From Clostridiales bacterium (GTDB lineage: Bacteria > Bacillota > Clostridia > Christensenellales > JAISNN01): a stretch of DNA of 31,968 nucleotides. Location of the stretch: assembly GCA_031289865.1 (NCBI GenBank), contig JAITOQ010000008.1, positions 1 to 31,968 on the forward strand. The letters run 5' to 3'. The stretch's first letter is position 1. Every line of letters begins with the position of its first letter. The notes beneath the pieces were generated by a model that made no database searches, was not told the origin of the DNA, and saw only the letters and a program-made list of their open reading frames with translations. Shown one piece after another: positions 3,150 to 22,446 of this stretch. The position numbers and the translations under genes are program-made.

Positions 3150-4043
3150 ATGAAAAAGTCCGAACGCTTGATAAATAAAAAATTACGCCTCAAAAACCGC
3201 GTATGGGAGGCGGACTTTCTGCGCGGGATTTGCTTGATTCTCATGATGCTGTATCATTTGGGAATATTGGTGTCTTTTTTCAATGAGTTTTTTTGGTTCG
3301 ATTATGTACCGGAGGGGAGCGGCTTCTCAAAATTTGTCGCCTTTGCGGAAAACTCGACCTTTTATTCCGCGTTTGTCGAGGACTATCTTCACAAAATAGT
3401 CATCTTTTTCTTCTTTTTTCTCGCGGGAATCGCCACGTTTTTTTCGCGGAATACAATCAAAAGCTTTTTTAAAACCGCGGGATTTGCGCTCGCCGTCACA
3501 GCCGCGACATACGGCTTATCTCTGCTCATTTCGGACGAATCTTTTCTTGTCACGCACGGCGTCTTTCACATTTTTGCGTTTTGCTATCTCTTTTGCACCC
3601 TTGCTTCGTTCGCGTTCAAAAACAAATACGCCCGTTCGGGATTTTTTATCTTTGCGGCGGTCTTCTTTATCGTCCTCGACATACGCGCTCAATCGGGCGC
3701 GGCAGTTTTTCCCGACTCGCTTTGGGCGGGTTTTTTCGTCGACAACGACCTTTTGCCCTCGTATTTGGATAACTTTTATATAATCCCCTATATCGGCTAT
3801 TTTTTAATCGGCGCGGGACTTGCCCCATTCCTCTATCCCGAAAAAAAATCCATCCTCCCGAAGCTCGACAAAAAATGGCATACCCCCGTCACCCTCATCG
3901 GTCGCCATCCCGTCACCGCCTACGCGCTCCATCTCGTCGTTTTTTCAATCATTCTCTTTATCATCGGTCTCATCTTTGTCCCGAATGAATGGCTCGACCC
4001 GCTTAAAAGCTTATTCGCGGAAATTTTCGGAACGGCAGCGTGA
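3150..4043 (+). CDS. DUF1624 / heparan-alpha-glucosaminide N-acetyltransferase-like membrane protein
   Basis: RVWEADFLRGICLILMMLYH N-terminal motif, FFFLAG, IGRHP; multiple TM segments. Confidence 0.8.
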   Translation: MKKSERLINKKLRLKNRVWEADFLRGICLILMMLYHLGILVSFFNEFFWFDYVPEGSGFSKFVAFAENSTFYSAFVEDYLHKIVIFFFFFLAGIATFFSRNTIKSFFKTAGFALAVTAATYGLSLLISDESFLVTHGVFHIFAFCYLFCTLASFAFKNKYARSGFFIFAAVFFIVLDIRAQSGAAVFPDSLWAGFFVDNDLLPSYLDNFYIIPYIGYFLIGAGLAPFLYPEKKSILPKLDKKWHTPVTLIGRHPVTAYALHLVVFSIILFIIGLIFVPNEWLDPLKSLFAEIFGTAA

Positions 4044-5354: not shown

Positions 5355-7187
5355 TTAAAATATATAATATTGCGCTTGCGCTTGCCACAGCTCGTAATAC
5401 TTACCGTTTTCATCCGCCATCAATTCGTTATGCGCGCCGTACTGGACGAGCCGCCCTTTGTCAAACACCGCTATCTTTCCGCAAAAGCGGCAAGACGATA
5501 GGCGGTGAGAGATATAGACCGCGCTTTTTTCGGCGACAAGCCCGTTAAATTTTGTATACAACTCATACTCGGCGACGGGGTCGAGGGATGCGGTCGGTTC
5601 GTCGAGTATGACAAACGGCGCATTTTTGTAAAGGGCGCGTGCAAGCGCGAGTTTTTGCGCCTCGCCGCCCGAAATTTCTACGCCGTCCTCCTCGCAATCC
5701 TTGTAGAGATATGTGTCTGTTCCTTTCGGCATACGCAATACACGCTCCTTGAGACCCGCACCGTCCAAAACCGTATCGGCACGCGCCGCGTCGCATTCGG
5801 TATCGCAAGCCAAATTGTCCGACACCCTAAAGGAAAAAATCTTAAAATCTTGAAAGACCACGGAGAAAAGCTTTCTGTATTCGTCGGTGTCAAAATCGCG
5901 TATATTTATCCCGTTCAAGAAAATTTCGCCCTCGTAGCCGTCGTACATTTTGGTCAACAGCTTGATAAAGGTCGTCTTTCCCGACCCGTTATGCCCGACG
6001 ATAGCCAGCCGCTCCCGTCCGTCGATTTTGATACTAAAATCCTTTAGCGCATAGCTCTCGCTCCCCGGATACTTAAAGCTAACGTTTTTAAACTCCGCAA
6101 CCAAATTTTTCGTGTCTATACCGCGCAAATCACGCGTACCGCACGGCTGATTTTCGGTGTCCGTGATAGCGAAATAGTAGCCGACTGTCTGCAAAATCTC
6201 GACGAAACAGCCCGCCCGCGTAAAGACCTCTATGAGCCCCGTGACGACTATCATAAAGCTCCCCGTGTACATGATGAGCGCGTCGATCTCAAACATGCCG
6301 ATCATGCCTTTTAAGCCGATAAACGCATAGACCCCAAAGCCCGCAATCGCGCCGACGACCGCAATAACTGAGGAGCTCATGCCCGTCGCCGTCGCAACCT
6401 TTTTACGAATCTTCACTCCCTTTTCTATCAAGTGATACGCCGCGTCGCGTTCTATCAAACGCTGCTCGTTAAATACGCGGATTTCCTTTCCGTTTTTGTA
6501 GTCGGACACGGTTTCCAAATAGTATTCAAAGATTTTGCTGAGATTGAGATACTGATCCTTTTGCTGAAACCAATATTTTTGCGTCTTTTTATTGACAAAA
6601 AACACAATTGCAATCAAGACCGCCATGACCCCGAACACCAGAAAGCCGAGGTACGGAGATTCGATAAAGGATGCACCCGTCTTTGAAAAATCAAACGCCC
6701 CGCGAAGAAACGGCGAAAGAACGACCACCGCCGCCACAATCGACACCAACCCGAACAAAAAGCCCCCTATCGCCCATGCAAGATAGCCGAAGTGGCTCCC
6801 TATCGCGTTTACGCTCTCCTTGTACTTCCTCGCCTTGCCGTCAAACTCCTTGTCCTCCAGCTTTTGATAGTCCACGGAGTACAGCTTCATAGCCGCTTTT
6901 TGGTACTCCCTCATATAAAGCCGCGGATAATTTGTAATCTCAGCCAAGCTCCCCAAAAAACTTTGGATCAGGTACGCTCCGAAATTCAGCCCGATCGCCA
7001 GCCCCGCAAAAAGCGTCAGCGTCCCCGCATCGCGCCCGCCCAAAAGCTCGCCCACAATCCGCGCCGTCAAGATAATGTTTATAAACGGCTTGACCGACTT
7101 GACCGCGCCGTTTAAAATCTGTAACGGCAACGCCCACGGCGATAGCTTAAACAACTCGCGTATACTGCGCATAAAAAGTTTAATCAT
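5355..7187 (-). CDS. ABC exporter, fused permease + ATP-binding subunit (610 aa)
   Basis: N-terminal TM helices; Walker A GHNGSGKTT, signature ISGGEAQK, Walker B VILDEPT, ISHRL. Confidence 0.93.
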   Translation of the reverse strand: MIKLFMRSIRELFKLSPWALPLQILNGAVKSVKPFINIILTARIVGELLGGRDAGTLTLFAGLAIGLNFGAYLIQSFLGSLAEITNYPRLYMREYQKAAMKLYSVDYQKLEDKEFDGKARKYKESVNAIGSHFGYLAWAIGGFLFGLVSIVAAVVVLSPFLRGAFDFSKTGASFIESPYLGFLVFGVMAVLIAIVFFVNKKTQKYWFQQKDQYLNLSKIFEYYLETVSDYKNGKEIRVFNEQRLIERDAAYHLIEKGVKIRKKVATATGMSSSVIAVVGAIAGFGVYAFIGLKGMIGMFEIDALIMYTGSFMIVVTGLIEVFTRAGCFVEILQTVGYYFAITDTENQPCGTRDLRGIDTKNLVAEFKNVSFKYPGSESYALKDFSIKIDGRERLAIVGHNGSGKTTFIKLLTKMYDGYEGEIFLNGINIRDFDTDEYRKLFSVVFQDFKIFSFRVSDNLACDTECDAARADTVLDGAGLKERVLRMPKGTDTYLYKDCEEDGVEISGGEAQKLALARALYKNAPFVILDEPTASLDPVAEYELYTKFNGLVAEKSAVYISHRLSSCRFCGKIAVFDKGRLVQYGAHNELMADENGKYYELWQAQAQYYIF

Positions 7188-7270: not shown

Positions 7271-7302
7271 CAACTTTCAACTCTCAACTTTCCGCTTTCA
7301 AC
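7271..7302 (-). repeat. Heptamer array (GTTGAAA on minus strand) containing the stop codon of the upstream ABC gene
   Basis: caac tttcaac tctcaac tttccgc tttcaac; encodes the C-terminal KLKAES*. Confidence 0.85.
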
Positions 7303-9113
7303 TTATAATAATAGCTCTGTATCTCGTACATTCTGTAATAATGCCCCTTTTTTTCCATCAATTCATCATGCGTCCCGACCTCCGCAATCGCGCCGTCCCT
7401 CATAAAAAAAATGCGGTCGCAAAAGCGCGTGGAGGACAATCGGTGAGAGATAAAAAACGAGGTCTTATCATGCGAAAAATCGTTGTACTTAAGATACATC
7501 TCGTTCTCCGCGATAGGGTCGAGAGCGGCGGTCGGTTCGTCCAATATGAGTATCGGCGCGTCCTTGTAGAGAGCGCGTGCGAGGAGCAGCTTTTGGGTTT
7601 CGCCGCCCGAAAGATTTACCGCGTCCTCGTAGACTTTTTTTATGAGCCGCGTATCCGCCCCCTTTTCAAAGGTCTTAATTTTGTCCTTAAGCCCCGCCTC
7701 ATCGAGAACCGCGGCGACCCGTTCAGAGTCGATTTCCGACTCGTTCTCCTTGAGCGCAATGTTTTGACCGATACTCATCGGGAGCAATACATAGTCCTGA
7801 AAGACCGCCGCAAACAAGGTATAGTACTCTTTTTTGTCAAAGCGCGATATGTCTGTTCCGTTCAAAAGAATGCGTCCCGATTCGGGTTTGTAAAAGCCGC
7901 AAAGGAGCTTTATGCAAGTGGTTTTGCCCGCGCCGTTCTCCCCGACCACAGCGATTTTTTCGCCCGCTTCTATTTTGAACGACATATCTTTTATAGTCGG
8001 TTCGGTGCTCCCGCGATATGAAAAGGTGACGTTTTCAAATTCGATTTCGCAAGGAAATTCATCTTTTTTCGGTACGGAAACCGCGTCGAGAGCGGCGGGC
8101 GCAACCTCCTCGCGTTCGACGAACTCACGGTAGCGGCTCGCGTTAAAGGAAATGCGTTTCAGCTTAAAAATATTGCTCGTCAAGCTGAAAATCCATGCAA
8201 AAAAGCCCGTGACCAACGCGAAATAGAACACAAAATCCGACACGGAAATATCGTTTTTTAACACTCCGTTTATGAGATAGACAAACGCGGCAAGATCGCA
8301 AACGAGGGAGAGTACCGCGTGTGCGGCATGCGTCCCGATTTGGACTCCGAACAGTTTTTTTGAGGTCTTGTTTACTCCGCGTCCGATATCGTCCACAATT
8401 TTCAAAAAAAACCTTTTTACTCCGAATACGCGGACGTCCTTTCCCGCGGCAAAGTCGTTTGCAGTCTTAAATAGGTAGTTTGTCCGCATTTGCTGCGCTT
8501 TGTATTCGTCATAGACCTTTTTGGAACGCTTGTGATAATAGCTCTCTAAAGCAAAATTCGCCGCGCCCGCCGCGAGTACGATGAGTATCAAAATCGGACT
8601 GACGCTCGTCAAGAGAACGGTATAGGTAAAAAGCCCCGTCAGATTGACCGCCAGCTCCACACCCGCGTCAAAAAAACCGCGTGCGCCGTTTCCCCACGCT
8701 TGCGTAAAGCCCTTGCATTTTTCAAACGCAAGCCGACCCTCAAGACTCTCTATGTATTCGTAATCGGTATTCATCATCTTGCGAAAGGCGCGAATGCGAT
8801 ATTCCGTATTCATGTTTTCCGCGACAGCCGTACATTTTGACTGCAAAAACGGGTTGATCCATGTGATCGCCGCAATCAAAAACGACATCAACCCGACCAA
8901 TATCAAGAGCTTCCCGATCCCGAAGCCGCCCTCTATCGCATCGATCATAAGCTTGGGAATGAGCGCGGTCACGATAGGCAAAACCACAAGCGGCGGTATC
9001 CGCATTAGATACAGCCAAAAGCTCCCCTTGTCAAACGCCCGCCAATTTTGAAACAAATACTTGACGTTGTCTCTATCCGAATATTTTTGTTTTTCAGCTT
9101 TTGCTTTCGGCAT
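7284..9113 (-). CDS. ABC exporter, fused permease + ATP-binding subunit; likely heterodimer partner of 5355-7187
   Basis: GENGAGKTT, LSGGETQK, LILDEPT, ISHRL; ATG 9113 preferred over TTG 9122 from GGAG spacing. Confidence 0.93.
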   Translation of the reverse strand: MPKAKAEKQKYSDRDNVKYLFQNWRAFDKGSFWLYLMRIPPLVVLPIVTALIPKLMIDAIEGGFGIGKLLILVGLMSFLIAAITWINPFLQSKCTAVAENMNTEYRIRAFRKMMNTDYEYIESLEGRLAFEKCKGFTQAWGNGARGFFDAGVELAVNLTGLFTYTVLLTSVSPILILIVLAAGAANFALESYYHKRSKKVYDEYKAQQMRTNYLFKTANDFAAGKDVRVFGVKRFFLKIVDDIGRGVNKTSKKLFGVQIGTHAAHAVLSLVCDLAAFVYLINGVLKNDISVSDFVFYFALVTGFFAWIFSLTSNIFKLKRISFNASRYREFVEREEVAPAALDAVSVPKKDEFPCEIEFENVTFSYRGSTEPTIKDMSFKIEAGEKIAVVGENGAGKTTCIKLLCGFYKPESGRILLNGTDISRFDKKEYYTLFAAVFQDYVLLPMSIGQNIALKENESEIDSERVAAVLDEAGLKDKIKTFEKGADTRLIKKVYEDAVNLSGGETQKLLLARALYKDAPILILDEPTAALDPIAENEMYLKYNDFSHDKTSFFISHRLSSTRFCDRIFFMRDGAIAEVGTHDELMEKKGHYYRMYEIQSYYYKLKAES

Positions 9114-9136: not shown

Positions 9137-11116
9137 TTATAGTTGACTTTCGTGCTTTTTAAAGAAATCAAACCGCGGCTCCAAAAACTTAAACGACTTG
9201 ACGTCGGGGTATATCTCTCCGAAGGTTTTTTCGGCGAGGTTCCAATCAAAGAGTTTTTTGTCCGCGTTCATATATTCCGCGGTGAGCTCCGCGCCGTCGG
9301 GAGTGATTGCGTGGAGCATGAGGACGCCGACTTTTATGACGTGGATTGTGTCGGTGATGAGAGAAGCACGCGTATCTATGTCGTCGGTTTTGGATTTTTC
9401 CGCCCATGTTTGGTTTGCCGAGCGGAAGTATTCGTCGATTATGCCGACGACGCCGTTAAACTCAAATTTATTCATATATTCCTCGTACTTTGCGAGTGCC
9501 TCTACCGCTTTTCGGAGGGTGTCCTCCGAAACGGACTTATTCGGCAATTTTCCGTCAAAATACTGTTGGAGCGAATAAAACACCGAACGGATAATCCGAT
9601 TAAAGATATTCGTCAGAATATTCCCTTGCAATAGTACGGGGTCTCCGCTCTTTTCAAACTCCTCCGGATAAAACGCTTTTGAGCGGAAGCTCGCGGTCGC
9701 AGAACCGATACCCTGTCCCAAAAAGTGCATACGGAGCTGTTCGACGGTATAGTAGTCCAAAAGGCTGTCCGCGGTCGGAGCTTTTACCTTGCCGCTGCTC
9801 CCCGCTTTGGCATTCCCCACCAAAAGGTGCTTATTTGCCACCACACGGGTCAAATTGAGCCTGCCGCTCTTTTTTTCTATCGTGTGACCTGCGCTTTGCG
9901 CCGCAAGAAAGACTCCCGTCTGTGCTAAGCAGTAAAAAAACACGTTATCTTCTCCGATAAATTGTACGACGCCCGCGTCCTTGTCGCACCACCAATCCGT
10001 CCATTCCGAGCCTTTACCCGTTCTTTTTCCCGCGGCGGAAAGATATGCGTCCGTGAATGAGATCGGAGCCCAAAGGGATTCGGGCCAAACGTAAAAGGTC
10101 AAGCCGTCGGTTTCGCCGCTTTTAAGTTTCGGCAGAGGCACTCCCCACTTGCAGTTTCCCGAAATACGGAACGGCGCAAGGGTTTTGTTGGAGCGATAGC
10201 GGATTCCCTCCGATTTTAAGAGTGCGCAAGCCTTGTCGCGAAGGGTCACGGAGGTGAATTTAAGCTGAACGCGCTTGTTTTTTTCGTCATAAAAGTAGAC
10301 GTGTTCGGGCAAACGGTCCAAAACCGCGTCGATCATGTCTTTTGCGGATTCGGAGATATAGAGGAGCGGCGGCTGTAAAAAGTCGCGCATGTCGCGGAGC
10401 ATAAATTTCCGCGCTCCGTCCCGTTCCAAAACCTCGCACCACGCACGAATCTCCTCCCTAAAAGCCTCCAACCTCAAATAATAGTTGGAAACAAGCTTCA
10501 TCTTAGGGGCGGTGTGAGAAAGCGTACTGACGGGATCGATAAGCTCCGACGGCGAATATTGATGCCCTAAGGCGCATTCGTCCGCATATCCGACCTCCGA
10601 CTTGCAGCCGTCGATAGGGCATTTCCCCTCGACCTGCCGCCCGTTCAAAATCATATCGAATTCCTCGTCGTAAAACTGTTCGGTGTCCTTTCGTTCCATA
10701 TAGCCGCTCTTTAGCATTTCCTCAAAAAAGTATGCGGAAATTTTTTCGTGCCGACGGTAGGACTCGCCGAAACAAGACGCGGCAAATAGGTCGAGTGAAA
10801 TCCCGTACCTCTCCAAAGTCGCCTTTTGGATATTGTGATAGCCCTCGACATATTCGGGGAGCGTCCCCGTATACTCGCCGCTCTCCTTTAGCTTGCGGTA
10901 CTTTTCCTCCGCAACCGAACCGAACCCGTCCGTACCCGAAACGAATATGACGTTTTCTTTTCCGATATTGTCCCGCATATAGCGCGCATACGCGTCCGCC
11001 CAAAGGAAAATCGCGCCTATATGCCCGATATGCAAGGGCTTGTTTCCGTTCGGCATACCCGCCGTAACGATAAGTCTTTTGGGGAAATTCGGTCTTGTGA
11101 GATTTGATTTTGGCAT
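9137..11116 (-). CDS. Divergent methionyl-tRNA synthetase-like protein (class I tRNA ligase family)
   Basis: PLHIGH, SGTDG, LNGRQVEGKCP Zn-knuckle, WGVP, FYVW, FIGED and anticodon-binding helical domain align with MetRS; KMSKS replaced by KAGSS; no C-terminal OB domain. Confidence 0.75.
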   Translation of the reverse strand: MPKSNLTRPNFPKRLIVTAGMPNGNKPLHIGHIGAIFLWADAYARYMRDNIGKENVIFVSGTDGFGSVAEEKYRKLKESGEYTGTLPEYVEGYHNIQKATLERYGISLDLFAASCFGESYRRHEKISAYFFEEMLKSGYMERKDTEQFYDEEFDMILNGRQVEGKCPIDGCKSEVGYADECALGHQYSPSELIDPVSTLSHTAPKMKLVSNYYLRLEAFREEIRAWCEVLERDGARKFMLRDMRDFLQPPLLYISESAKDMIDAVLDRLPEHVYFYDEKNKRVQLKFTSVTLRDKACALLKSEGIRYRSNKTLAPFRISGNCKWGVPLPKLKSGETDGLTFYVWPESLWAPISFTDAYLSAAGKRTGKGSEWTDWWCDKDAGVVQFIGEDNVFFYCLAQTGVFLAAQSAGHTIEKKSGRLNLTRVVANKHLLVGNAKAGSSGKVKAPTADSLLDYYTVEQLRMHFLGQGIGSATASFRSKAFYPEEFEKSGDPVLLQGNILTNIFNRIIRSVFYSLQQYFDGKLPNKSVSEDTLRKAVEALAKYEEYMNKFEFNGVVGIIDEYFRSANQTWAEKSKTDDIDTRASLITDTIHVIKVGVLMLHAITPDGAELTAEYMNADKKLFDWNLAEKTFGEIYPDVKSFKFLEPRFDFFKKHESQL

Positions 11117-11142
11117 AATGACACCTACTTTTTATCCTTAAT

Positions 11143-11170
11143 TTTCAACTTTCAACTTTCAATTTTCAAC
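11143..11170 (-). repeat. Four-unit heptamer array containing the aspS stop codon
   Basis: tttcaac tttcaac tttcaat tttcaac. Confidence 0.9.
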
Positions 11171-12896
11171 TTTTAATAGCAATATGTGTTTCAAGCAACT
11201 GTTTCGGCTCTAACGCGGACGGTGCGCCCATCATGAGGTCTTGGGCGTTTTTATTCATCGGGAATGCTATGACCTCTCTGATATTCGGCTCTCCCGCAAG
11301 GAGCATGACCATACGGTCAACCCCCGGAGCAATCCCCGCGTGAGGCGGTGCGCCGAAATGAAACGCGTTGTACATGGCGGGAAAGCGGCTTGCGACCACG
11401 TTTTCGTTAAGTCCGACGATTTCAAAGGCGCGGACTAACGCTTCGGGGTTGTGATTCCGTACCGCTCCGCTTGACAGCTCGATTCCGTTACAGACTATAT
11501 CGTATTGATAAGCCAAAATATCCAACGGATTCATATTGTTGAGCGCGTCAAGCCCGCCTTGCGGCATACTGAACGGATTGTGGCAAAACTCGATTTGCCC
11601 CGACTCCTCTCCTATCTCGTACATCGGAAAATCCACTATCCAACAAAATTTGTAGACGTCTTGTTCGGTCAGACCGAGTACCTCGCCGAGGCGCGTCCGG
11701 AGTAGTCCCGCCGTTTTTTCTATTTTTCCCTTTTTACCCGCGACGATTCCGACAAAAGCGTTCGGAGCTAAGTTTAGCGCGGCTTTTATCTCGTTTTCCT
11801 TTTCTGTCAAAAATTTTGCAATCCCGCCGTTTAAGCGGTTTTCGCCGTCGGTCTTGACCCAAAACAGCTTTCCCTCGTTTTGACCGATATATTCGACGGT
11901 TTCGTCGATAGTCTTTCTCGTCCCCGCGAAATTTTGCACGACGACGGCTTTGACTGTGTTTTCCTTAAAATCCGCGAACGCGCCGTCTTTCACAAACGCG
12001 GTGATATCCTTGACAAAAAGCGGATTCCTAAGGTCGGGCTTGTCGCTCCCGTAGTTTTCCACCGCGTCGCGGTATGTGATTCGCGGAAACGGCACTTCGG
12101 CTATCCGCTTATCGGAAAATTCTCTAAAAATTTCGGGTAAAACTCCTTCGAGTTCGGTGAACACGTCCTCTTGGCTCGCAAAAGCCATTTCCATATCCAT
12201 CTGATAAAATTCGCCCGGTGAGCGGTCGGCTCTCGCGTCCTCGTCCCTAAAGCACGGCGCAATCTGAAAGTACTTGTCAAAACCCGCCGTCATGAGTATC
12301 TGTTTAAAAATCTGCGGAGCTTGCGGGAGCGCGTAAAATTTACCGGGGTGAACTCTACTCGGTACTATATAGTCCCGCGCACCCTCCGGAGATGAGCTTG
12401 TGAGTATCGGCGTCGTGATTTCCAAAAATCCTCTCGCGGTCATCTTTGCGCGAAGTGCGGAAACCACACGCGAACGGAGGACGATTTTGTCCTTGACCGT
12501 CGGGTTTCGGAGATCCAAAAAGCGGTATTTGAGCCGAGTTTCCTCTTTTGACTGTAGGGAATTCCCTATCTCAAACGGGAGCTGCTCGCTGCAGCGTCCC
12601 AAAACCTCGATTTTGGTCGGCGCAATCTCGATTAAGCCCGTAGGGAGCTTAGGATTCGGCGCGGAGCGCAAAACCACGCGCCCGTCTACCGCGACGGTGG
12701 ATTCACGCGGAATACTCCTAAGCTCGTTTTTTGTTTTTTCGTCGTCCGCGGTTATCTGCGTCACGCCGTAAAAATCGCGTATCGTAGCAAAAATAATGTT
12801 GCCGATGTCGCGTGTTCCTTGTAGCCACCCCTCGATTCTGACGGTTTTGCCCGCGTCGGTGTCGCGTAATTCGTTGCAAGTGTGAGTTCTTCTCAT
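11166..12896 (-). CDS. aspS: Aspartate--tRNA ligase
   Basis: RTHTC, EGARDY, ALPQAPQ, CFRDED, GEFYQMD, GIELSSG, GAPPHAG motifs; GAGGA SD supports ATG 12896; RDIG rather than RDHG suggests the discriminating type. Confidence 0.97.
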   Translation of the reverse strand: MRRTHTCNELRDTDAGKTVRIEGWLQGTRDIGNIIFATIRDFYGVTQITADDEKTKNELRSIPRESTVAVDGRVVLRSAPNPKLPTGLIEIAPTKIEVLGRCSEQLPFEIGNSLQSKEETRLKYRFLDLRNPTVKDKIVLRSRVVSALRAKMTARGFLEITTPILTSSSPEGARDYIVPSRVHPGKFYALPQAPQIFKQILMTAGFDKYFQIAPCFRDEDARADRSPGEFYQMDMEMAFASQEDVFTELEGVLPEIFREFSDKRIAEVPFPRITYRDAVENYGSDKPDLRNPLFVKDITAFVKDGAFADFKENTVKAVVVQNFAGTRKTIDETVEYIGQNEGKLFWVKTDGENRLNGGIAKFLTEKENEIKAALNLAPNAFVGIVAGKKGKIEKTAGLLRTRLGEVLGLTEQDVYKFCWIVDFPMYEIGEESGQIEFCHNPFSMPQGGLDALNNMNPLDILAYQYDIVCNGIELSSGAVRNHNPEALVRAFEIVGLNENVVASRFPAMYNAFHFGAPPHAGIAPGVDRMVMLLAGEPNIREVIAFPMNKNAQDLMMGAPSALEPKQLLETHIAIKS

Positions 12897-13126
12897 ATTT
12901 TTCCTCATTATTATAGAATTTTGTTCATTTTTAGCCTATATATCCTATGAAATGCCGTCGTTATCGCTCCCATTATCATTAAACATCATATTCTCTTGAA
13001 AGGGCGAATACTCGACTTTTTTCCGCTAACTACCTTTCTTTCGCAATAAAATTCATTATCACTTAATATTGTGTCGCTATAATAACCTCAATCATTATAC
13101 AGCGGCTAAAGATATACTTACTTAAT

Positions 13127-13155
13127 AGTATATTACCGAAAAGAAATTTTGTCAA
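13127..13155 (-). promoter_or_regulatory. sigmaA promoter upstream of aspS
   Basis: TTGACA(13155-13150)-17 bp-TATACT(13132-13127); implies a ~220-nt leader. Confidence 0.7.
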
Positions 13156-13257
13156 ATAAAATCACCGTAACTAAGTGCGGCAACACGTTTGTTTTTAAAG
13201 GTTTTCAAAAACAAGGTGCATATTTTACAATATTTTATAATATATCGGTGTTTTTCC

Positions 13258-13286
13258 TTGCTTTTATTTCTTTTTTTTGGTATAAT
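13258..13286 (+). promoter_or_regulatory. sigmaA promoter with extended -10 for the MarR gene
   Basis: TTGCTT-17-TATAAT preceded by TG; AGGGAGG SD at 13321. Confidence 0.7.
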
Positions 13287-13333
13287 GTAAGTAACATCAC
13301 TGTTAATTTAAACATATTTTAGGGAGGTTCAAC

Positions 13334-13816
13334 ATGAAAAAGCAAAAAATTAACGCATTAGCAAACGATATCGTCGAGTTCTCGCCGATCATCAAAAAGA
13401 GTTTCATCGAAAACGTCATGCAGTTTAAGGACAAAGGGATTTCAAATCACCAGTTTTTCTGCATCTTAATCTTGCGTAAAAGCGGACCGTTGACGATGAG
13501 CACACTCGCCGACGCAATGAACGTGTCAAAACAACAATTGACCCGTATCGTTGACGAATTAGTCAAGAGCGACATCGTAGAACGCTACACAGATTCAACC
13601 AACCGCCGTTTGGTCTTCGCTCAACTCAGCGCAATCGGCGAAGCACGCGCAAAAGTACTTGACGAAAACGTTCAAAACCGTGCCGCCGAAGTACTCGGCG
13701 ATCTTTCGGACGCTGACATCGAAAAAGCGGTGGAGAGCGTAAAATGCTTAGTCGGACTTTGTAAAAAGATTTCGACAAAAAATCCGCCGTCCAAAAAAGT
13801 GGTTATTGACGACTAA
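13334..13816 (+). CDS. MarR-family transcriptional regulator
   Basis: LTMSTLADAMNVSKQQLTRIVDELVKSDIVERYTDSTNRR winged-HTH pattern. Confidence 0.9.
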   Translation: MKKQKINALANDIVEFSPIIKKSFIENVMQFKDKGISNHQFFCILILRKSGPLTMSTLADAMNVSKQQLTRIVDELVKSDIVERYTDSTNRRLVFAQLSAIGEARAKVLDENVQNRAAEVLGDLSDADIEKAVESVKCLVGLCKKISTKNPPSKKVVIDD

Positions 13817-14379
13817 TGCCCTCACGGAGTTTCACGTTCGAGGTATTGCTCCCCGACGGTAATTCTCTTTTGGTCTTAGTTCAAAAAAAACCCGAAATCA
13901 AAAATTTTAACCTTTCCGTCCGTCCGCGTGACGGACGGATACGGTTATCCGTGCCCGTTTCCGTCGGAAACGACGCGATCAAACACTTTTTAATCTCTAA
14001 AGCCGCATGGATTGAAAAGCGTTTAACTGTATCAACTAATACGGTTCAACCCATCAAAAAGTCCGAATATGACAAAGAAGTCGTTTCGGTCTTTTTGTCG
14101 TTTGTAAAAGAACGTACCGCCTATTGGGAAAGCGTCACAAACCTCGCCTCATCGGCAATACGCGTCAAAAACATGACCTCGCGCTACGGCAGCTGCAACG
14201 TCAAAACAAAAAAAATCACGATAAGCCTTATACTGATCGACAAACCGCCGATCTGCCTCGACTATGTGATCGTCCACGAACTCACCCACCTCGTGACGCG
14301 GTTTCACGACAAAACCTTTTATGCTCATTTAGAACGCTTTTTTCCGAATAGAAAAGAAGCGGAGAAAATGTTAAGATGA
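13816..14379 (+). CDS. M48-family / YgjP (DUF45, SprT-like) zinc metalloprotein
   Basis: MTSRYGSC, DYVIVHELTHL, HDKTFY; translationally coupled (TAATG) to the MarR gene. Confidence 0.88.
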   Translation: MPSRSFTFEVLLPDGNSLLVLVQKKPEIKNFNLSVRPRDGRIRLSVPVSVGNDAIKHFLISKAAWIEKRLTVSTNTVQPIKKSEYDKEVVSVFLSFVKERTAYWESVTNLASSAIRVKNMTSRYGSCNVKTKKITISLILIDKPPICLDYVIVHELTHLVTRFHDKTFYAHLERFFPNRKEAEKMLR

Positions 14380-15012: not shown

Positions 15013-15039
15013 TTTCAACTTTCAACTTTCAACTTTCAC
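15013..15039 (-). repeat. Heptamer array containing the ClC stop codon
   Basis: tttcaac x3 + tttcac. Confidence 0.88.
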
Positions 15040-16382
15040 TTTTTCTTCTTCCCCCACTCCCTCAGCTTCTCTAACCATCTGCTGTAGATAAACCGTTCCG
15101 ACGGGTGTTCCGCGGTTTCGGATTCGAGCCAAACGCCCGTGATTTTGGATTCCTTCATCATTTGCGTCGGGTAGACGCTTCTGTGCCCCGTGACGATATA
15201 TGCGATGGAGCAAGCGACGGCCGCAAGCACCGCAAGCGACGGATTCAAAAACATCTCAAAAGCCATGACGATACATGCGAGAGGGGTGTTTGTCGCGCTT
15301 GCTAGTACCGCGAGCATTCCGAGCGCGGAAAAAACCACGGGGTCGAGATGAAACAGCGCGGCAAACGCGCTCCCCGACGTGATCCCGATAAACATAAGCG
15401 GAGTGAGTATCCCGCCGCTCCCTCCGAAAGAGAGCGTAATCGCGGTAAACACAATCTTTAGGAGAAAGTCGTATCCGCGTGCGGGGTCGCCCCCGATAAT
15501 CCTTGTAAAGTAGCCGATACCCATGCCGAGATAGTCCGTCCCGAACACGAGCGCGAGGAGTACGATCGCCGCGCCGCCTATTAAGCCCTTTAACGGCTTG
15601 TAGATTTTGATTTTGTTTGCAATTTTGTGCGTCCCGCCGAGGACGAGTATCGTCAGCATAGAAACCAACCCGAAGAATATCCCCGCCCCAAGCGCGATTC
15701 CCACGGTCGGGAGCGCGTTATTCCACGCAAGCGTGAGAAAAATTTCGGGCATTTTTTCCGTTTCTATCCCGAACGCCGATGACACAAAATAGCCCGCAAG
15801 CGAAGCAATCATAACGGGAAAAATATTTTTAAGGTCGATTCGTCCTACAATCAATACTTCTATCGCAAAGATTGCCGCGGCGACGGGCGTACCGAATATA
15901 GCCGCAAAAGCCGCCGCCATACCCGCGACGACAAGCCGCTTTGTGTCCTTTTCGTCGAGGTGAAAAAGCCCCGCGAGAAAGCTTGCCGCCCCCGCGCCGA
16001 TTTGCGTCGTCGGACCTTCCTTTCCCGCCGAACCGCCGCTCCCTATCGTGATGACCGTCGCAATGATTTTGACGGGAACCACGCCGAGTTTGATTCTCCC
16101 GCCCCTTTTGTGAATAGCCTCTATCGCTTTTTCCGTCCCGTGCCCCTCCGCACCCGGCGCAAGATGCTTGACGGCAAACGCGGACAAAAACATACCGATC
16201 GGCAAAAACAAATAGTAGTAGGAAAAGCCCGCCGCAAAACCGCTCGCGGTGTTTAACAGCCAAATAAAGCCCGCGCCTATCGCGCCGACCGCCGCCCCCG
16301 TGACGCCGCTCAACAACAGCCACTTCACCAAATATGCAAAAAAGAGGAAAAGCCCGACGGCTTTTTGTTTTATCTTCTCCAT
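15036..16382 (-). CDS. ClC-family chloride channel / Cl-/H+ antiporter, no CBS domains
   Basis: GHGT (GSGIP-position) motif, GSAGKEGP with gating Glu, FGTPVAAAIFAIE, GGSGGILTP, NTPL. Confidence 0.92.
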   Translation of the reverse strand: MEKIKQKAVGLFLFFAYLVKWLLLSGVTGAAVGAIGAGFIWLLNTASGFAAGFSYYYLFLPIGMFLSAFAVKHLAPGAEGHGTEKAIEAIHKRGGRIKLGVVPVKIIATVITIGSGGSAGKEGPTTQIGAGAASFLAGLFHLDEKDTKRLVVAGMAAAFAAIFGTPVAAAIFAIEVLIVGRIDLKNIFPVMIASLAGYFVSSAFGIETEKMPEIFLTLAWNNALPTVGIALGAGIFFGLVSMLTILVLGGTHKIANKIKIYKPLKGLIGGAAIVLLALVFGTDYLGMGIGYFTRIIGGDPARGYDFLLKIVFTAITLSFGGSGGILTPLMFIGITSGSAFAALFHLDPVVFSALGMLAVLASATNTPLACIVMAFEMFLNPSLAVLAAVACSIAYIVTGHRSVYPTQMMKESKITGVWLESETAEHPSERFIYSRWLEKLREWGKKKK

Positions 16383-17722: not shown

Positions 17723-19912
17723 ATGCCAAATGTTTTAATTTATTTTATAGTATTCGTATCTGTCGCGGTCGCGGGTTCGCTCGCCTTTGCGCTCTACAAC
17801 TTTTTCCGTGTCAAAAAGTTGAAAAGCGGTACCGACGCCATGAACGAAATCGCCTCCGCAATCAGCGAGGGTGCGAGCGCGTTTATCGCGCATGAGTACA
17901 AGGTGATAGGTATCACCGCCGCAATAGTCGCGGTCGTCCTCGGTGTCATTCTCGACCCGTGGAGCGCAATCGCGTTTGCACTCGGTATCATTCTTTCGGG
18001 TTCGGCGGGCTTTGTCGGCATGAAGATCGCGACTATCGCAAACGTCCGCGTTGCCAATACCGCACGCGAAACACGCTCCCTCGGCAAGACCCTCAAGGTA
18101 GCTTTCCGCGGCGGCAGCGTCATGGGACTGTGCGTAGGCGGCTTTGCACTCCTCGGTCTTTTAATCTGTTTCCTCGTATTCGGTTTAGGCGCGGGACAAT
18201 TAAACGTCGAAAACATCAAGCTCACAAAAAACCTGATCGGAATCGAATACATACCGTTTACAATGGTCGTATCCTGCTATGCGCTCGGCTGCTCGATGGT
18301 CGCGCTCTTTAACCGTATCGGCGGCGGTATCTATACCAAAGCCGCGGACATGGGTGCGGATCTCGTCGGCAAGACGGAAGAACACATTCCCGAAGACGAC
18401 GCCCGCAACCCCGCCACTATCGCCGACAACGTAGGCGACAACGTAGGCGACGTCGCGGGGCTTGGGAGCGACCTCTTAGAGAGCTATGTCGGCGCAATCA
18501 TCGCCGCCGTCATCCTCTCCGCATACACCTTTATCACCACCCTTGCAACCGATAGAGAGTTTAGCGGCAAGTTGCTCCAACGTCTTATGCTGTTTCCCGT
18601 CACCTTTGCGGGCGTGGGCGTCATCGCGTGTATATTCGGTATCGGCTACGTCATCTTTAAAAAAGCCAGCAACAAGCCGCACCGCGAATTAAACATCGCG
18701 CTCTGGTCGTCCGCCGCAATCATCGTCGTAGGAGGTTGCGTCCTCTCGTGGGCGTTCTTTAAAGACTTCACGGGAAAAGAAATAGAAACTCTCGGCTTTA
18801 ATCTCGGCGAATTTTCGCCTTGGGTGGGTACGGTCATCGGTATAGTATGCGGTATCGTCATCGGTATGCTTGCCGAATACTACACCAGCGCGGATCACAA
18901 GCCGACACAAAACCTTGCTAAAATCACCACCGAAGGCACCGCACTCACCATCACAAGAGGGCTTGCGCTCGGGATGAAAAGCTGTTTTTTTCCCGTCATC
19001 GTCTTAGGACTTGCGGTCATCGGATCGTATGCGGCGGCGGGCGTGTACGGAGTCACAATGGCGGCGGTCGGTATGCTCTCTTTCGTCGCGGCGACGGTTT
19101 CCGTCGACACCTACGGACCTATCGCGGATAACGCGGGCGGTATCAGCGAAATGAGCAAGCTTGACCACGAGGTTCGTGAAATCACCGACAAGCTCGACTC
19201 CGTCGGAAATACCACGGCGGCTATCGGAAAAGGCTTTGCTATCGGGAGCGGCGCGCTTGCCGCGTTAAGTCTGTTGATATCGTTTATCCACAGCCAACTC
19301 AAGGCGGGCGAATCCGCAGAAGCCACATTAAATATCATCGACGCACTCACCCTTGCGGGCGCGTTTATCGGCGGCGCGCTGCCGTTCTTCTTTTCGGGGC
19401 TTCTGACCGACGCGGTCGCAAAGAGCGCGCAGCACATGGTCAAAGAGGTTCGCCGTCAGTTTAGAGAAAAACCGGGCATTTTGGACGGTACCGAAAAGCC
19501 CGATTACAAGCAATGTATCAAGATTTCCGCGGCGGGCGCAATCAAGGAAATGAAACTCCCCGTCCTCATCGCGGTCGCGCTTCCTTTGGTCGGCGGGTTT
19601 TTGCTCGGCGCAAAGTTTGTCGGAGGAATCCTCATCGGCGCAACCATTACCGCTATCATGATGGCAATCTTTACCGCCAACGCGGGCGGCGCATGGGACA
19701 ACGCCAAAAAAGCTATCGAACAAGGCTTTATAAAGGGTGTCGGCAAAGGCTCGAAAGAGCATGACGCCGCCGTCGTCGGAGATACCGTAGGCGATCCGCT
19801 AAAGGATACAGTCGGACCGTCGCTCGATATCTTAATCAAAATTATGGCGACCGTCTCCCTCATCGGCGTCGCTATCTTCGGACAGTTTAATCTGTTGGCG
19901 CTGTTTAGCTAA
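17723..19912 (+). CDS. hppA: Membrane-bound ion-translocating pyrophosphatase, K+-dependent type (probably Na+-pumping)
   Basis: GGGIYTKAADMGADLVGKTE, EDDARNP, DNVGDNVGD, GGAWDNAKK, GDTVGDPLKD; GNTTAA (Ala, not Lys) marks K+-dependence. Confidence 0.96.
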   Translation: MPNVLIYFIVFVSVAVAGSLAFALYNFFRVKKLKSGTDAMNEIASAISEGASAFIAHEYKVIGITAAIVAVVLGVILDPWSAIAFALGIILSGSAGFVGMKIATIANVRVANTARETRSLGKTLKVAFRGGSVMGLCVGGFALLGLLICFLVFGLGAGQLNVENIKLTKNLIGIEYIPFTMVVSCYALGCSMVALFNRIGGGIYTKAADMGADLVGKTEEHIPEDDARNPATIADNVGDNVGDVAGLGSDLLESYVGAIIAAVILSAYTFITTLATDREFSGKLLQRLMLFPVTFAGVGVIACIFGIGYVIFKKASNKPHRELNIALWSSAAIIVVGGCVLSWAFFKDFTGKEIETLGFNLGEFSPWVGTVIGIVCGIVIGMLAEYYTSADHKPTQNLAKITTEGTALTITRGLALGMKSCFFPVIVLGLAVIGSYAAAGVYGVTMAAVGMLSFVAATVSVDTYGPIADNAGGISEMSKLDHEVREITDKLDSVGNTTAAIGKGFAIGSGALAALSLLISFIHSQLKAGESAEATLNIIDALTLAGAFIGGALPFFFSGLLTDAVAKSAQHMVKEVRRQFREKPGILDGTEKPDYKQCIKISAAGAIKEMKLPVLIAVALPLVGGFLLGAKFVGGILIGATITAIMMAIFTANAGGAWDNAKKAIEQGFIKGVGKGSKEHDAAVVGDTVGDPLKDTVGPSLDILIKIMATVSLIGVAIFGQFNLLALFS

Positions 19913-21060: not shown

Positions 21061-22446
21061 CTAAAACTCCAAATTCCGATAGTTTCTCGGAAACGGCGTC
21101 ACATCGCGGATATTCGCGATTCCCGTGAGGAGCATAACCATGCGCTCGAACCCAAGCCCGAATCCCGCGTGTTTACAGCCCCCGAAACGCCTCAAATCGG
21201 TGTACCATGCGTAATTCTCCTTATCGAGGTTTAGCTCCTTCATGCGCGTTGTGAGGACGCTAACGCGCTCCTCGCGCTGACTCCCGCCGATCAACTCTCC
21301 TATTCCCGCGACCAACAGGTCCGCCGCGGCGACGGTTTTTCCGTCGTCGTTCAAGCGCATATAAAACGCCTTGATTTCCTTTGGATAATCGGTCAAAAAC
21401 ACGGGCTTTTTAAACACCTCTTCGGTGAGGTAGCGTTCGTGTTCGGATTGGAGATCCGCGCCCCACTCCACGGGAAATTCAAAACTTTTTCCGCTCGTCT
21501 TGAGAATCTCCACCGCCTCTGTATAGCTCAATCGTACAAATTCGTTACCTACGATATTTTCAAGCCGTGCAAGCAAGCCGCTATCGACGTATTCATTTAA
21601 AAACGCAAGCTCCGCCCCGCAAGCCGCTCTTACATGCCGAATCACCGACTTTACCATATCTTCCGCAAGCCGCATATCGTCCTCAATATCCGCAAACGCG
21701 ATTTCGGGCTCTATCATCCAAAATTCCGCGGCATGACGCGCCGTATTTGACAGCTCTGCGCGGAAGGTCGGACCAAAGGTGTAGACCTTAGAGAACGCCA
21801 TCGCATAGGTTTCCGCATTTAGCTGACCGCTGACTGTAAGGCTTGCGGGCTTGCCGAAAAAATCCTCCGAAAAATCCGTCCTCCCGTCCTCCGTTCTATG
21901 CGGTTTGTCCGGGTCGAGGGTCGTGACGCGAAACATCGCCCCCGCCCCCTCACAATCACTTGAGGTAATTATCGGGGTGTGAACATAGACAAATCCCCGT
22001 TCGTGAAAAAAGTCATGAATGGCAAAAGCCGCCTCGCTCCGAATCCTAAACACCGCATGAAAGGTATTCGTTCTCGGACGGAGGTACGCTTTTTCGCGCA
22101 AAAATTCAAAGGAATGCCGTTTTTTTTGTATCGGATAATCGGGCGCGGCTTCGCCCTCGACTATGACCGTATCGGCGTGAAGCTCGAACGGCTGTTTGTT
22201 TTCGGGGGTCAATACGACGCTCCCCTCCACGGTAAGCGACGCGCCCGTCAACTGCCTCTCGACCTCATCAAAATTTCCGACCTTTTCCCTATCAAACACG
22301 ATTTGAACCGTCCTAAAACACGACCCGTCGTTCAGCTCGATAAATCCGAAGCTCTTTGAGGTTCGTATCGAACGAATCCACCCCGAAACTTGAACGGTTT
22401 TTTGAGAGGGATTAAGAAATAGATTTTTTACTGTTGTTTTTTCCAT
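21061..22446 (-). CDS. asnS: Asparagine--tRNA ligase
   Basis: [68 protein letters not shown]. Confidence 0.97.

Follow-up and report, generated by a model that had tools for sequence, protein, structure and literature searches.

A protein family derived from methionyl-tRNA synthetase in Clostridia and Spirochaetia, proposed to attach glutamine directly to tRNA-Gln

In a window of 31,968 nucleotides (nt) from a Clostridiales bacterium (positions 1 to 31,968 of contig JAITOQ010000008.1, assembly GCA_031289865.1), we analysed a gene encoding a protein of 659 amino acids (aa) that resembles methionyl-tRNA synthetase (MetRS) and lies on the minus strand at 9137..11116. We propose, with a probability of about 0.7, that this gene encodes a glutaminyl-tRNA synthetase derived from MetRS, which would attach glutamine directly to tRNA-Gln. 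In textbooks, Gln-tRNA-Gln is made by exactly two routes, that is either by glutaminyl-tRNA synthetase (GlnRS) or by glutamyl-tRNA synthetase (GluRS) together with an amidotransferase, and the synthetase types for the twenty standard amino acids are regarded as essentially complete. With slightly less confidence, we think it probable that bacteria have a third route to Gln-tRNA-Gln, namely a stand-alone GlnRS that came from MetRS (class Ia) and not from GluRS, in which a lysine of the HIGH loop replaces the KMSKS lysine, and that certain Clostridia, Ruminococcus albus 8 among them, and certain Spirochaetia have this enzyme as their sole route. The best explanation of our data is that the gene belongs to an undescribed family of class I synthetases, split from the two-knuckle (E. 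coli/archaeal-type) MetRS lineage; a full-text literature search found no paper describing this family.

By searching 5.8 billion proteins, we found hundreds of full-length relatives (44-78% identical, 640-700 aa), the named ones being annotated either as “class I tRNA ligase family protein” or as “methionyl-tRNA synthetase”. A scan with one genome per species placed the family in at least 575 species. The carriers are mostly Clostridia (Lachnospiraceae, Oscillospiraceae, R. albus 8, Anaeromicropila herbilytica and Herbinix), and the family also occurs in metagenome-assembled genomes labelled Spirochaetales, Latescibacterota, Sumerlaeota and Acidobacteriota. In a maximum-likelihood tree (quick search), the family and a small sister clade were set apart from 27 canonical MetRS with a Shimodaira-Hasegawa-like approximate likelihood ratio of 100. 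The window protein nests inside the family clade and carries every invariant column of alignments A1 and A3, the latter comprising 85 sequences (81 family members and 4 sister-clade proteins). A previous sequence-only reading of this DNA had taken the gene for a MetRS paralog. Given that a canonical metG (694 aa, with KMSKS and GKEIVRFH) is found on contig C81 of the same assembly (1.93 Mb, 263 contigs, 84.5% complete), the gene is indeed a paralog and not the only metG of its genome. A canonical MetRS was likewise present in 5/5 carrier genomes tested.

The leaders found upstream of relatives point to regulation by T-boxes that read glutamine codons. The A. herbilytica ortholog has a T-box leader (82.9 bits, E 2e-18), a survey of 80 loci gave six more leaders 5' of family genes, and five further ones came from the regions 5' of 31 more family genes, which makes twelve in all. 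The six leaders scored with Rfam RF00230 reached 77.6-106.2 bits, three of them above the gathering score. We calibrated the specifier register on the other T-boxes of one genome, that of A. herbilytica, where GAA-A-ACC-G and GAA-G-ACU-A stand in the leaders of the two thrS genes, GAA-C-AUG-G in that of the canonical metG and GAA-CUC-G in that of leuS. This calibration places the codon one base after GAA when the 3' specifier loop has 9 nt, and the Rfam consensus (GAA-a-uuc-a) shows the same one-base offset. The family leaders read GAA-N-CAA-G in nine cases, GAA-A-CAG-G in two and GAA-CAG-G in one, the last with the canonical 7-nt loop and a score of 106.2 bits, above the gathering score. All of the first seven leaders had CAA, while the five later ones comprised two GAA-A-CAG-G, two GAA-C-CAA-G and the single GAA-CAG-G. 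The calibrated position therefore holds CAA nine times and CAG three times, that is both glutamine codons, and it is the only register that yields one amino acid across the twelve leaders, the others mixing either ACA, GCA and CCA or AAG and AGG.

The base of the UGGN element that pairs with the tRNA discriminator is C in eight of the family leaders and U in four, which fits the G73 of tRNA-Gln; in the genomes tested, tRNA-Gln has G73, tRNA-Thr(UGU) U73 and tRNA-Lys(UUU) A73. We rejected a threonine reading (ACA right after GAA) on three grounds. First, this register gives ACA, GCA and CCA across the leaders. Second, the U73 of tRNA-Thr cannot pair with the C or U of the leaders. Third, the true thrS leaders of A. 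herbilytica have A as the variable UGGN base and their codon one base further on. A lysine reading (AAG, register +2) was also rejected, since the CAG leaders give AGG in this register and A73 fits only the leaders with U. A missing ThrRS or LysRS was rejected as an explanation too, each of them (class II for LysRS) being present in 4/5 carriers tested, including the window's genome. Because none of the 8 sampled glnS genes had a T-box motif, glnS itself could not be used to calibrate the glutamine specifier. Together, the calibrated register, the synonymous codons and the discriminator base support glutamine and contradict threonine.

We then compared the distribution of the family with those of GlnRS and the amidotransferase GatCAB in 300 Clostridia genomes (at least 90% complete) and in a second sample of 101 Spirochaetia, hence 401 genomes in total. 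First, GlnRS was found in 2 of the 33 Clostridia carriers and in 194 of the 267 non-carriers, so that 31/33 and 73/267, respectively, had no GlnRS match. Both GlnRS and GatB were missing in eight carriers and in a single non-carrier; five of these double-negative genomes, including that of R. albus 8, were tested for GatA and gave no match to it either. Second, the two enzymes exclude each other among close relatives: in one genus with genomes of 0.8-1.0 Mb (g3), three genomes have the family without GlnRS and two have GlnRS without the family, another genus (g29) is split in the same way, two versus three, and in one taxonomic family (f21) the MetRS-derived gene is present in 11/11 genomes and GlnRS in 0/11. 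Third, GlnRS is present in 81/101 Spirochaetia and in none of the 3 carriers there, and the only 2 Spirochaetia without GlnRS and GatB are both carriers. No GlnRS match was found either in five carriers from other phyla. Over the 401 genomes, 11 lacked both GlnRS and GatB and 10 of these were carriers, whereas 364/365 non-carriers have a known route to Gln-tRNA-Gln. Related genomes are non-independent samples in these counts, but the same pattern is seen repeatedly, across many taxonomic families and two phyla.

The window's genus fits this replacement pattern, with the family in 5/6 genomes, GlnRS in 0/6 and GatB in 6/6; neither the window's assembly (84.5% complete) nor any of 5 congeners gave a GlnRS match. 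Conversely, among 15 other families of the window's order, GlnRS was found in 14 and the MetRS-derived family in 0. Because the genus has GatCAB, the enzyme need not be the sole glutamine route in the window's organism, where both the enzyme and the indirect route may be in use, or GatCAB may be reserved for asparagine.

At the level of the protein, a MetRS scaffold is combined with a rewritten amino-acid pocket. Pfam gave PF09334 as the only match (203.7 bits), and the protein fell far under the cut-offs of the NCBIfam MetRS equivalogs NF001100 (218 vs 587 bits) and TIGR00398 (184.4 vs 336.35 bits), with no glnS or gltX model among its NCBIfam matches; the tree, too, groups it with MetRS. Its translation has M21-P-N-G-N25 where MetRS has LPYAN, keeps H29-I-G-H32 and G61-T-D63, and has K437-A-G-S-S441 at the KMSKS position, the second (catalytic) lysine of the MetRS loop being absent. 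All the motif changes listed in the sequence-only reading (MPNGN, WPESLWAP, GEDNVFFY and KAGSS) are present in the translation, as are the HIGH motif, the amino-group Asp and the W253 equivalent that it had described as kept. Of the Met-pocket positions (E. coli L13, Y15, W253, A256, P257, Y260, I297 and H301, a numbering that we take over from that reading and from textbook knowledge), only the W253 equivalent is unchanged: L13 is conservatively replaced by M, and Y15, A256, P257, Y260, I297 and H301 by N, S, L, P, N and Y, respectively. Within the family, H29, G31, H32, D63, W344-P-E-S-L-W-A-P351, D390, N391, Y395, K437, A438, S440, S441, N506 and R510 are identical in 81/81 members. Position 439 is Ser in 77 of them, Gly in 3 and Ala in 1, and the Y-to-N change at residue 23 is common to 19/81 members and thus not particular to the window gene. 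The idea, raised in the sequence-only reading, that the enzyme activates an amino acid other than methionine is most likely right.

When the window protein was aligned to Pyrococcus abyssi MetRS (1rqg) with HMMER, its K-AGSS faced K-FSTS, and residues ~230-317 faced ~23 MetRS residues, which corresponds to an insertion of ~60 aa. The protein stops after the helical bundle, without the C-terminal oligonucleotide-binding (OB) domain, whereas the canonical MetRS of the host has a C-terminal tRNA-binding domain; insertion and missing OB domain had both been described from the sequence and are borne out by these comparisons. In the connective-peptide knuckle, C166, C171 and C181 are invariant in A3, and H185 is invariant in A1 and conserved to at least 90% in A3; by analogy with MetRS, the knuckle would bind zinc. 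An AlphaFold2 model of the window protein (85 sequences), with a predicted local distance difference test (pLDDT) score of 92.6 and a predicted TM-score (pTM) of 0.93, has the MetRS fold, that is a Rossmann core, a connective peptide with a knuckle, a KMSKS domain and a helical anticodon domain. It superposes on E. coli MetRS (VIA) with Z 36.7 and a root-mean-square deviation (rmsd) of 3.3 Å over 518 residues, and on the Aquifex aeolicus MetRS-tRNA complex with Z 36.0 and an rmsd of 2.2 Å over 450 residues. The insertion folded alone reached a pLDDT of 91.2, and a fold search with it returned generic ferredoxin/ACT/RRM-like matches only, the best at Z 7.5, which is the background level.

The sequence-only reading had described the gene as having no KMSKS. 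Taken as a sign of a disabled ATP site, this does not hold, since the first lysine and the two serines are invariant and a lysine, K26, was gained where the second lysine was lost. The second KMSKS lysine is lost in 81/81 members, and all of them have K26, which precedes the first HIGH histidine by three residues. In arginyl-tRNA synthetase (ArgRS), a HIGH-loop lysine is reported to compensate for a degenerate KMSKS (Sekine et al. 2001, J Biol Chem 276:3723; listed in PMC8318970). By analogy, K26 may have a catalytic role, and judging from its conserved residues the catalytic core looks competent and not degenerate. The ArgRS lysine presumably stands at the same spacing as K26 (K-x-L-H-x-G-H). 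The sister clade (P0150, P0165, P0167 and P0181, metagenomic, 25-30% identity) has the same insertion and the WPESL(I)AP / DN..FY pocket and retains KMSKS and GTDDHG. It has G26 together with an intact KMSKS in 4/4 proteins, and its anticodon-helix residues differ (A507, E510). This clade may be an intermediate form.

Several observations weigh against a glutaminyl-tRNA synthetase. First, T-box leaders precede only ~12 of the roughly 110 family loci examined, and no T-box or other Rfam element was found at the window gene itself or 5' of aspS (gathering scores over the whole window; E<=1 over 11050-13400). Second, the protein still has the N/R/W residues with which MetRS reads the CAU anticodon, whereas the anticodon of tRNA-Gln is YUG. 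The spacing of N506 and R510 matches that of N391 and R395 of E. coli MetRS, to which they would correspond according to the P. abyssi MetRS alignment and textbook knowledge. Third, GatB is present in 6/6 genomes of the window's genus, where the gene is not demonstrably the only route, and 23/33 Clostridia carriers also have GatB, 2 of the 33 having GlnRS as well. Fourth, one non-carrier (G260; 2.1 Mb, 99% complete) is without the family, GlnRS and GatB at the thresholds used, the only such genome sampled; a new search of it with a looser family-plus-MetRS profile returned only the canonical MetRS. More generally, absences depend on hidden Markov model thresholds over draft genomes, the window's assembly being 84.5% complete. 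Finally, glutamine is preferred to glutamate solely on account of the carriers without GatCAB and of a pocket without Arg or Lys.

This last point is where the most serious alternative comes in. The family could be a tRNA-Gln-specific misacylating enzyme, analogous to the GluRS2 of Helicobacter, which would load glutamate onto tRNA-Gln for an amidotransferase to convert it to glutamine. Control by glutamine T-boxes and anti-correlation with GlnRS would fit such an enzyme equally well, GatB accompanies the family in those 23/33 Clostridia carriers and in the window's genus, and the MetRS-like domain of PyrN, a related protein, binds glutamyl-adenylate. However, no match to GatB was obtained in ten carriers from two phyla, nor any to GatA in the five of them tested, R. 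albus 8 included. A GluRS-type match is moreover present in 5/5 carriers tested, that of R. albus 8 being confirmed as a GluRS-type protein. The pocket points the same way: in PyrN, R425 (N+4) binds the gamma-carboxylate of glutamate (bioRxiv 10.1101/2025.08.22.671884), and in the family, which has the same G-x-D-N as PyrN, position N+4 is always Tyr and none of the invariant residues of the pocket motifs is basic. A polar uncharged pocket formed by S347, N391 and Y395 would rather suit an amide side chain. We thus consider misacylation unlikely, roughly one chance in ten being left to it.

Slightly less probable still is a protein that does not aminoacylate at all, either a tRNA-Gln-binding or regulatory pseudo-synthetase or one that uses tRNA-Gln or glutamine for another purpose. 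Several synthetase paralogs have non-translational roles, the second KMSKS lysine is absent here and many carriers have another route to Gln-tRNA-Gln. Yet 81/81 members keep HIGH, the Asp that binds the alpha-amino group, the pocket and K437, together with the compensating K26, and the ten carriers without another known route need Gln-tRNA-Gln. Loss of the second lysine is also compatible with activation, since the MetRS-like domain of PyrN has KFSTG for KMSKS and still forms an aminoacyl-adenylate (bioRxiv 10.1101/2025.08.22.671884).

We judge it very improbable that the enzyme serves a natural-product pathway as an amino-acid ligase that works without tRNA, similar to the cupin/MetRS hydrazine synthetases, whose product would be exported by the pair of ATP-binding cassette (ABC) transporters encoded downstream. 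Each of the five genomes in the clade of 74-78% identity does have these two genes after the family gene, and the PyrN domain, with its degenerate KMSKS, is a structural neighbour of the window model (TM-score 0.82, normalised to target). Against this, Pfam detected no cupin, N-hydroxylase or other biosynthetic gene in the window protein and its neighbours, 76 other loci have unrelated neighbourhoods, the ABC pair belongs to a common heterodimeric exporter type, and T-box control and complementarity with GlnRS point to translation. The idea of biosynthesis coupled to export, raised in the sequence-only reading, finds no more backing in the gene order, as linkage to aspS is seen in 2/82 loci and the ABC pair is confined to the window's genus-level clade. 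Least probable of all is the other idea of that reading, a second, inhibitor-resistant or specialised MetRS still charging tRNA-Met: second MetRS genes conferring inhibitor resistance are known in Gram-positive bacteria, and the MetRS fold, the PF09334 match and the kept N/R/W anticodon-helix residues would agree with it, but the features of such MetRS2-type enzymes (KMSKS and the Met pocket) are not kept in the window protein, at five of the eight Met-pocket positions another residue, mostly a polar one, is fixed across 81 sequences, the T-boxes of relatives read CAA or CAG while the canonical metG leader of the same genome (A. herbilytica) reads AUG, and the distribution tracks the absence of GlnRS and nothing related to methionine.

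If the enzyme is a glutaminyl-tRNA synthetase, it could work as follows. Gln-AMP would be made in the polar pocket (S347, N391 and Y395), with K26 and K437 stabilising the transition state as in enzymes of the ArgRS type. tRNA-Gln would be bound through the retained helical anticodon domain, possibly with participation of the beta-alpha-beta-beta-alpha module, and glutamine would then be transferred to A76. Such an activity would explain how glutamine codons are translated in the sampled genomes with neither GlnRS nor GatCAB, and would call for a new annotation of the gene, now “methionine--tRNA ligase” or “class I tRNA ligase family protein”, in the 575 or more species that have it, gut and rumen Clostridia among them. 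It would also provide a natural example of a synthetase that changed both its amino acid and its tRNA, a candidate orthogonal pair for genetic-code engineering, and, for one of the standard amino acids, a synthetase of a new type, a finding on a par with that of class I LysRS.

Coordinates of the MetRS-derived gene, its motifs and the adjacent features in the window
Feature	Position	Strand	Basis
MetRS-derived family member, proposed non-canonical glutaminyl-tRNA synthetase, 659 aa	9137..11116	-	Open reading frame (ORF), PF09334, model; every invariant residue of the 85-sequence alignment present
HIGH loop K26-P-L-H-I-G-H32 with family-specific lysine K26	11021..11041	-	K26 in 81/81 members
Cys/His knuckle C166-P-x-x-G-C171 ... 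C181-x-x-G-H185 of the connective-peptide domain	10562..10621	-	Conserved columns
Family-specific insertion of ~60 aa, residues ~247-310, beta-alpha-beta-beta-alpha module before the WGVP block	10187..10378	-	Absent from canonical MetRS in alignments
Pocket motif 1, W344-P-E-S-L-W-A-P351 (E. coli W253-L-D-A-P-I-G-Y260)	10064..10087	-	All 8 residues identical in 81/81
Pocket motif 2, G388-E-D-N-V-F-F-Y395 (E. coli G294-K-D-I-V-Y-F-H301)	9932..9955	-	D390, N391, Y395 in 81/81
KMSKS position K437-A-G-S-S441	9794..9808	-	K437, A438, S440, S441 in 81/81
Anticodon-domain helix N503-x-x-N506-R507-x-x-R510	9587..9610	-	N506, R510 in 81/81
Conserved C-terminal tail D650-F-F-K-K-H-E-S-Q658	9143..9169	-	D650, F651, F652, K654, H655, Q658 invariant in alignment A1
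aspS, canonical bacterial aspartate--tRNA ligase, directly upstream	11166..12908	-	NF001750, 716 bits vs cut-off 443
ABC exporter half-transporter 1, transmembrane domain and ATPase	7284..9113	-	PF00664 and PF00005; likely ATG at 9113 after AGGAG (ORF to 9122)
ABC exporter half-transporter 2	5355..7187	-	PF00005; MsbA-like NCBIfam matches under cut-off
Best sigma-70-like promoter match upstream of aspS, TTGACA-17-TATACT	13127..13155	-	11/12 consensus positions; consensus match only

In the window, aspS, the MetRS-like gene and the two ABC half-transporter genes follow each other on the minus strand, separated by 49 nt, ~23 nt (counted from the likely ATG at 9113) and 96 nt, with no terminator-like site in any of the three gaps, in agreement with the short gaps and lack of a clear terminator reported in the sequence-only reading. 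A purine-rich Shine-Dalgarno-like AAGTAGGTG lies 7 nt 5' of the ATG of the MetRS-like gene, which appears to be expressed together with aspS. The promoter match at 13127..13155 is a possible promoter of the operon, judged by its consensus positions, and a weak promoter-like site is also found in the 49-nt gap. We rejected a functional link to aspS, since adjacency was seen in 2/82 loci only, the window and L014, a congener. A link to the ABC pair is unsupported as well: the pair is kept only within one genus-level clade, where all five genomes have it after the family gene, against 0/76 other loci. We read the order aspS, family gene, ABC pair as inherited synteny and not as a functional unit.

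Other genes of the window and of its genome (G000) concern aspartate and asparagine. A canonical asparagine--tRNA ligase (AsnRS) is encoded at 21061-22446 on the minus strand (NF003037, 653 bits), 10 kb from aspS and the MetRS-like gene. With this AsnRS in the window, the genome has AsnRS, two AspRS-like genes, the second lying 3' of gatB on contig C126, and GatCAB. In the region covered by C147:628-809 and 3401-3931 and by C126:2-841 and 1137-1952, gatB is split over two contig ends, and a T-box (50.6 bits, UGGC) whose Stem I is much reduced lies ~2.6 kb 5' of gatB on C147. Because Stem I is reduced, the specifier of this T-box upstream of gatCAB could not be read. Elsewhere in the window, the segments 13334-14379 (+), 15036-16382 (-) and 17723-19912 (+) hold, divergent from aspS, a MarR-family regulator gene that overlaps a gene for a YgjP-like metallopeptidase by one base, and also a CLC chloride channel and a sodium-translocating pyrophosphatase (1012.7 bits). 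An ORF of 2208 aa at 24923-31549 (-), whose only Pfam matches are to a YDG/MBG domain around residues 993-1092, probably encodes a large surface protein; a similar YDG protein is encoded near the family ortholog in L013.

Three further carriers have features of their own. In R. albus 8 (L090 2110-6983, NZ_ADKM02000080.1), where GlnRS, GatB and GatA were not found, a GluRS-type gene with an N-terminal extension of ~140 aa (279.7 bits vs cut-off 289.95) lies directly upstream of the family gene, together with a 271-aa ORF of no known family. The genome of A. herbilytica (G001:C1; L114, L111, L115 and L116) has two ThrRS and three MetRS-type genes, plus GlnRS and GatCAB. Its gatCAB region has a T-box and an AsnRS/AspRS-like gene in front, with AAC in the specifier region, which suggests a GatCAB tuned to asparagine rather than glutamine. 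In one of the two Clostridia genomes that also have GlnRS (and GatB), the family gene contains an in-frame TGA (G191:C340:8425-10389); it may be a decaying redundant copy, or the TGA a sequencing error.

The proposed enzyme can be set against five known systems. With the two-knuckle MetRS (PDB 1qqt, 1pfw and 1rqg; PF09334; PRK00133), the family shares the overall architecture, HIGH, the alpha-amino Asp, the W253 equivalent and the N/R residues of the anticodon helix. In contrast to MetRS, its pocket has N or Y for Y15, S for A256, L for P257, P for Y260, N for I297 and Y for H301, it has KA(S/G)SS, the HIGH-loop Lys and the ~60-aa insertion, and it is devoid of a C-terminal dimerisation or tRNA-binding domain. 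It also coexists with a true MetRS, and the relatives are under the control of tRNA-Gln and not of tRNA-Met. The cupin/MetRS hydrazine synthetases (PyrN, Spb40; PDB 9l8v) likewise use a MetRS scaffold on an amino acid other than Met, with HxGH, a degenerate KMSKS and G-x-D-N at the ribose/alpha-amino site; the match of 9l8v_B to the window model ranks below about 25 true MetRS structures. These domains work independently of tRNA, with an N-hydroxylamine as acceptor of the amino acid, occur in biosynthetic clusters as fusions with a cupin domain or as its partners, and bind the Glu carboxylate through Arg. The family has Tyr for this Arg, the neighbours of the window gene are aspS, the ABC exporters, MarR and the YgjP-like peptidase, and the PyrN type has neither T-box control nor a link to the distribution of GlnRS.

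ArgRS with a degenerate KMSKS resembles the family in pairing the loss of the KMSKS lysine with a HIGH-loop lysine, the two co-varying perfectly in the family, and differs from it in its substrate. The indirect pathway, that is a non-discriminating GluRS or GluRS2 with GatCAB, takes two steps through a misacylated intermediate. It coexists with the family in most Clostridia carriers, but the family cannot depend on it, because ten carriers are without a GatB match and five of them, when tested, were without GatA as well. Finally, GlnRS (class Ib, derived from GluRS, TIGR00440) would catalyse the same reaction on the same tRNA. The tRNA-Gln of carriers has U1-A72 and G73, features also of E. 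coli tRNA-Gln. There is no sequence kinship between the two enzymes beyond the class I Rossmann core, the family coming from MetRS (class Ia) and GlnRS from GluRS, and the anticodon domain is a helical bundle in the former and made of beta-barrels in the latter. Their mutually exclusive distribution is what would be expected if one functionally replaces the other.

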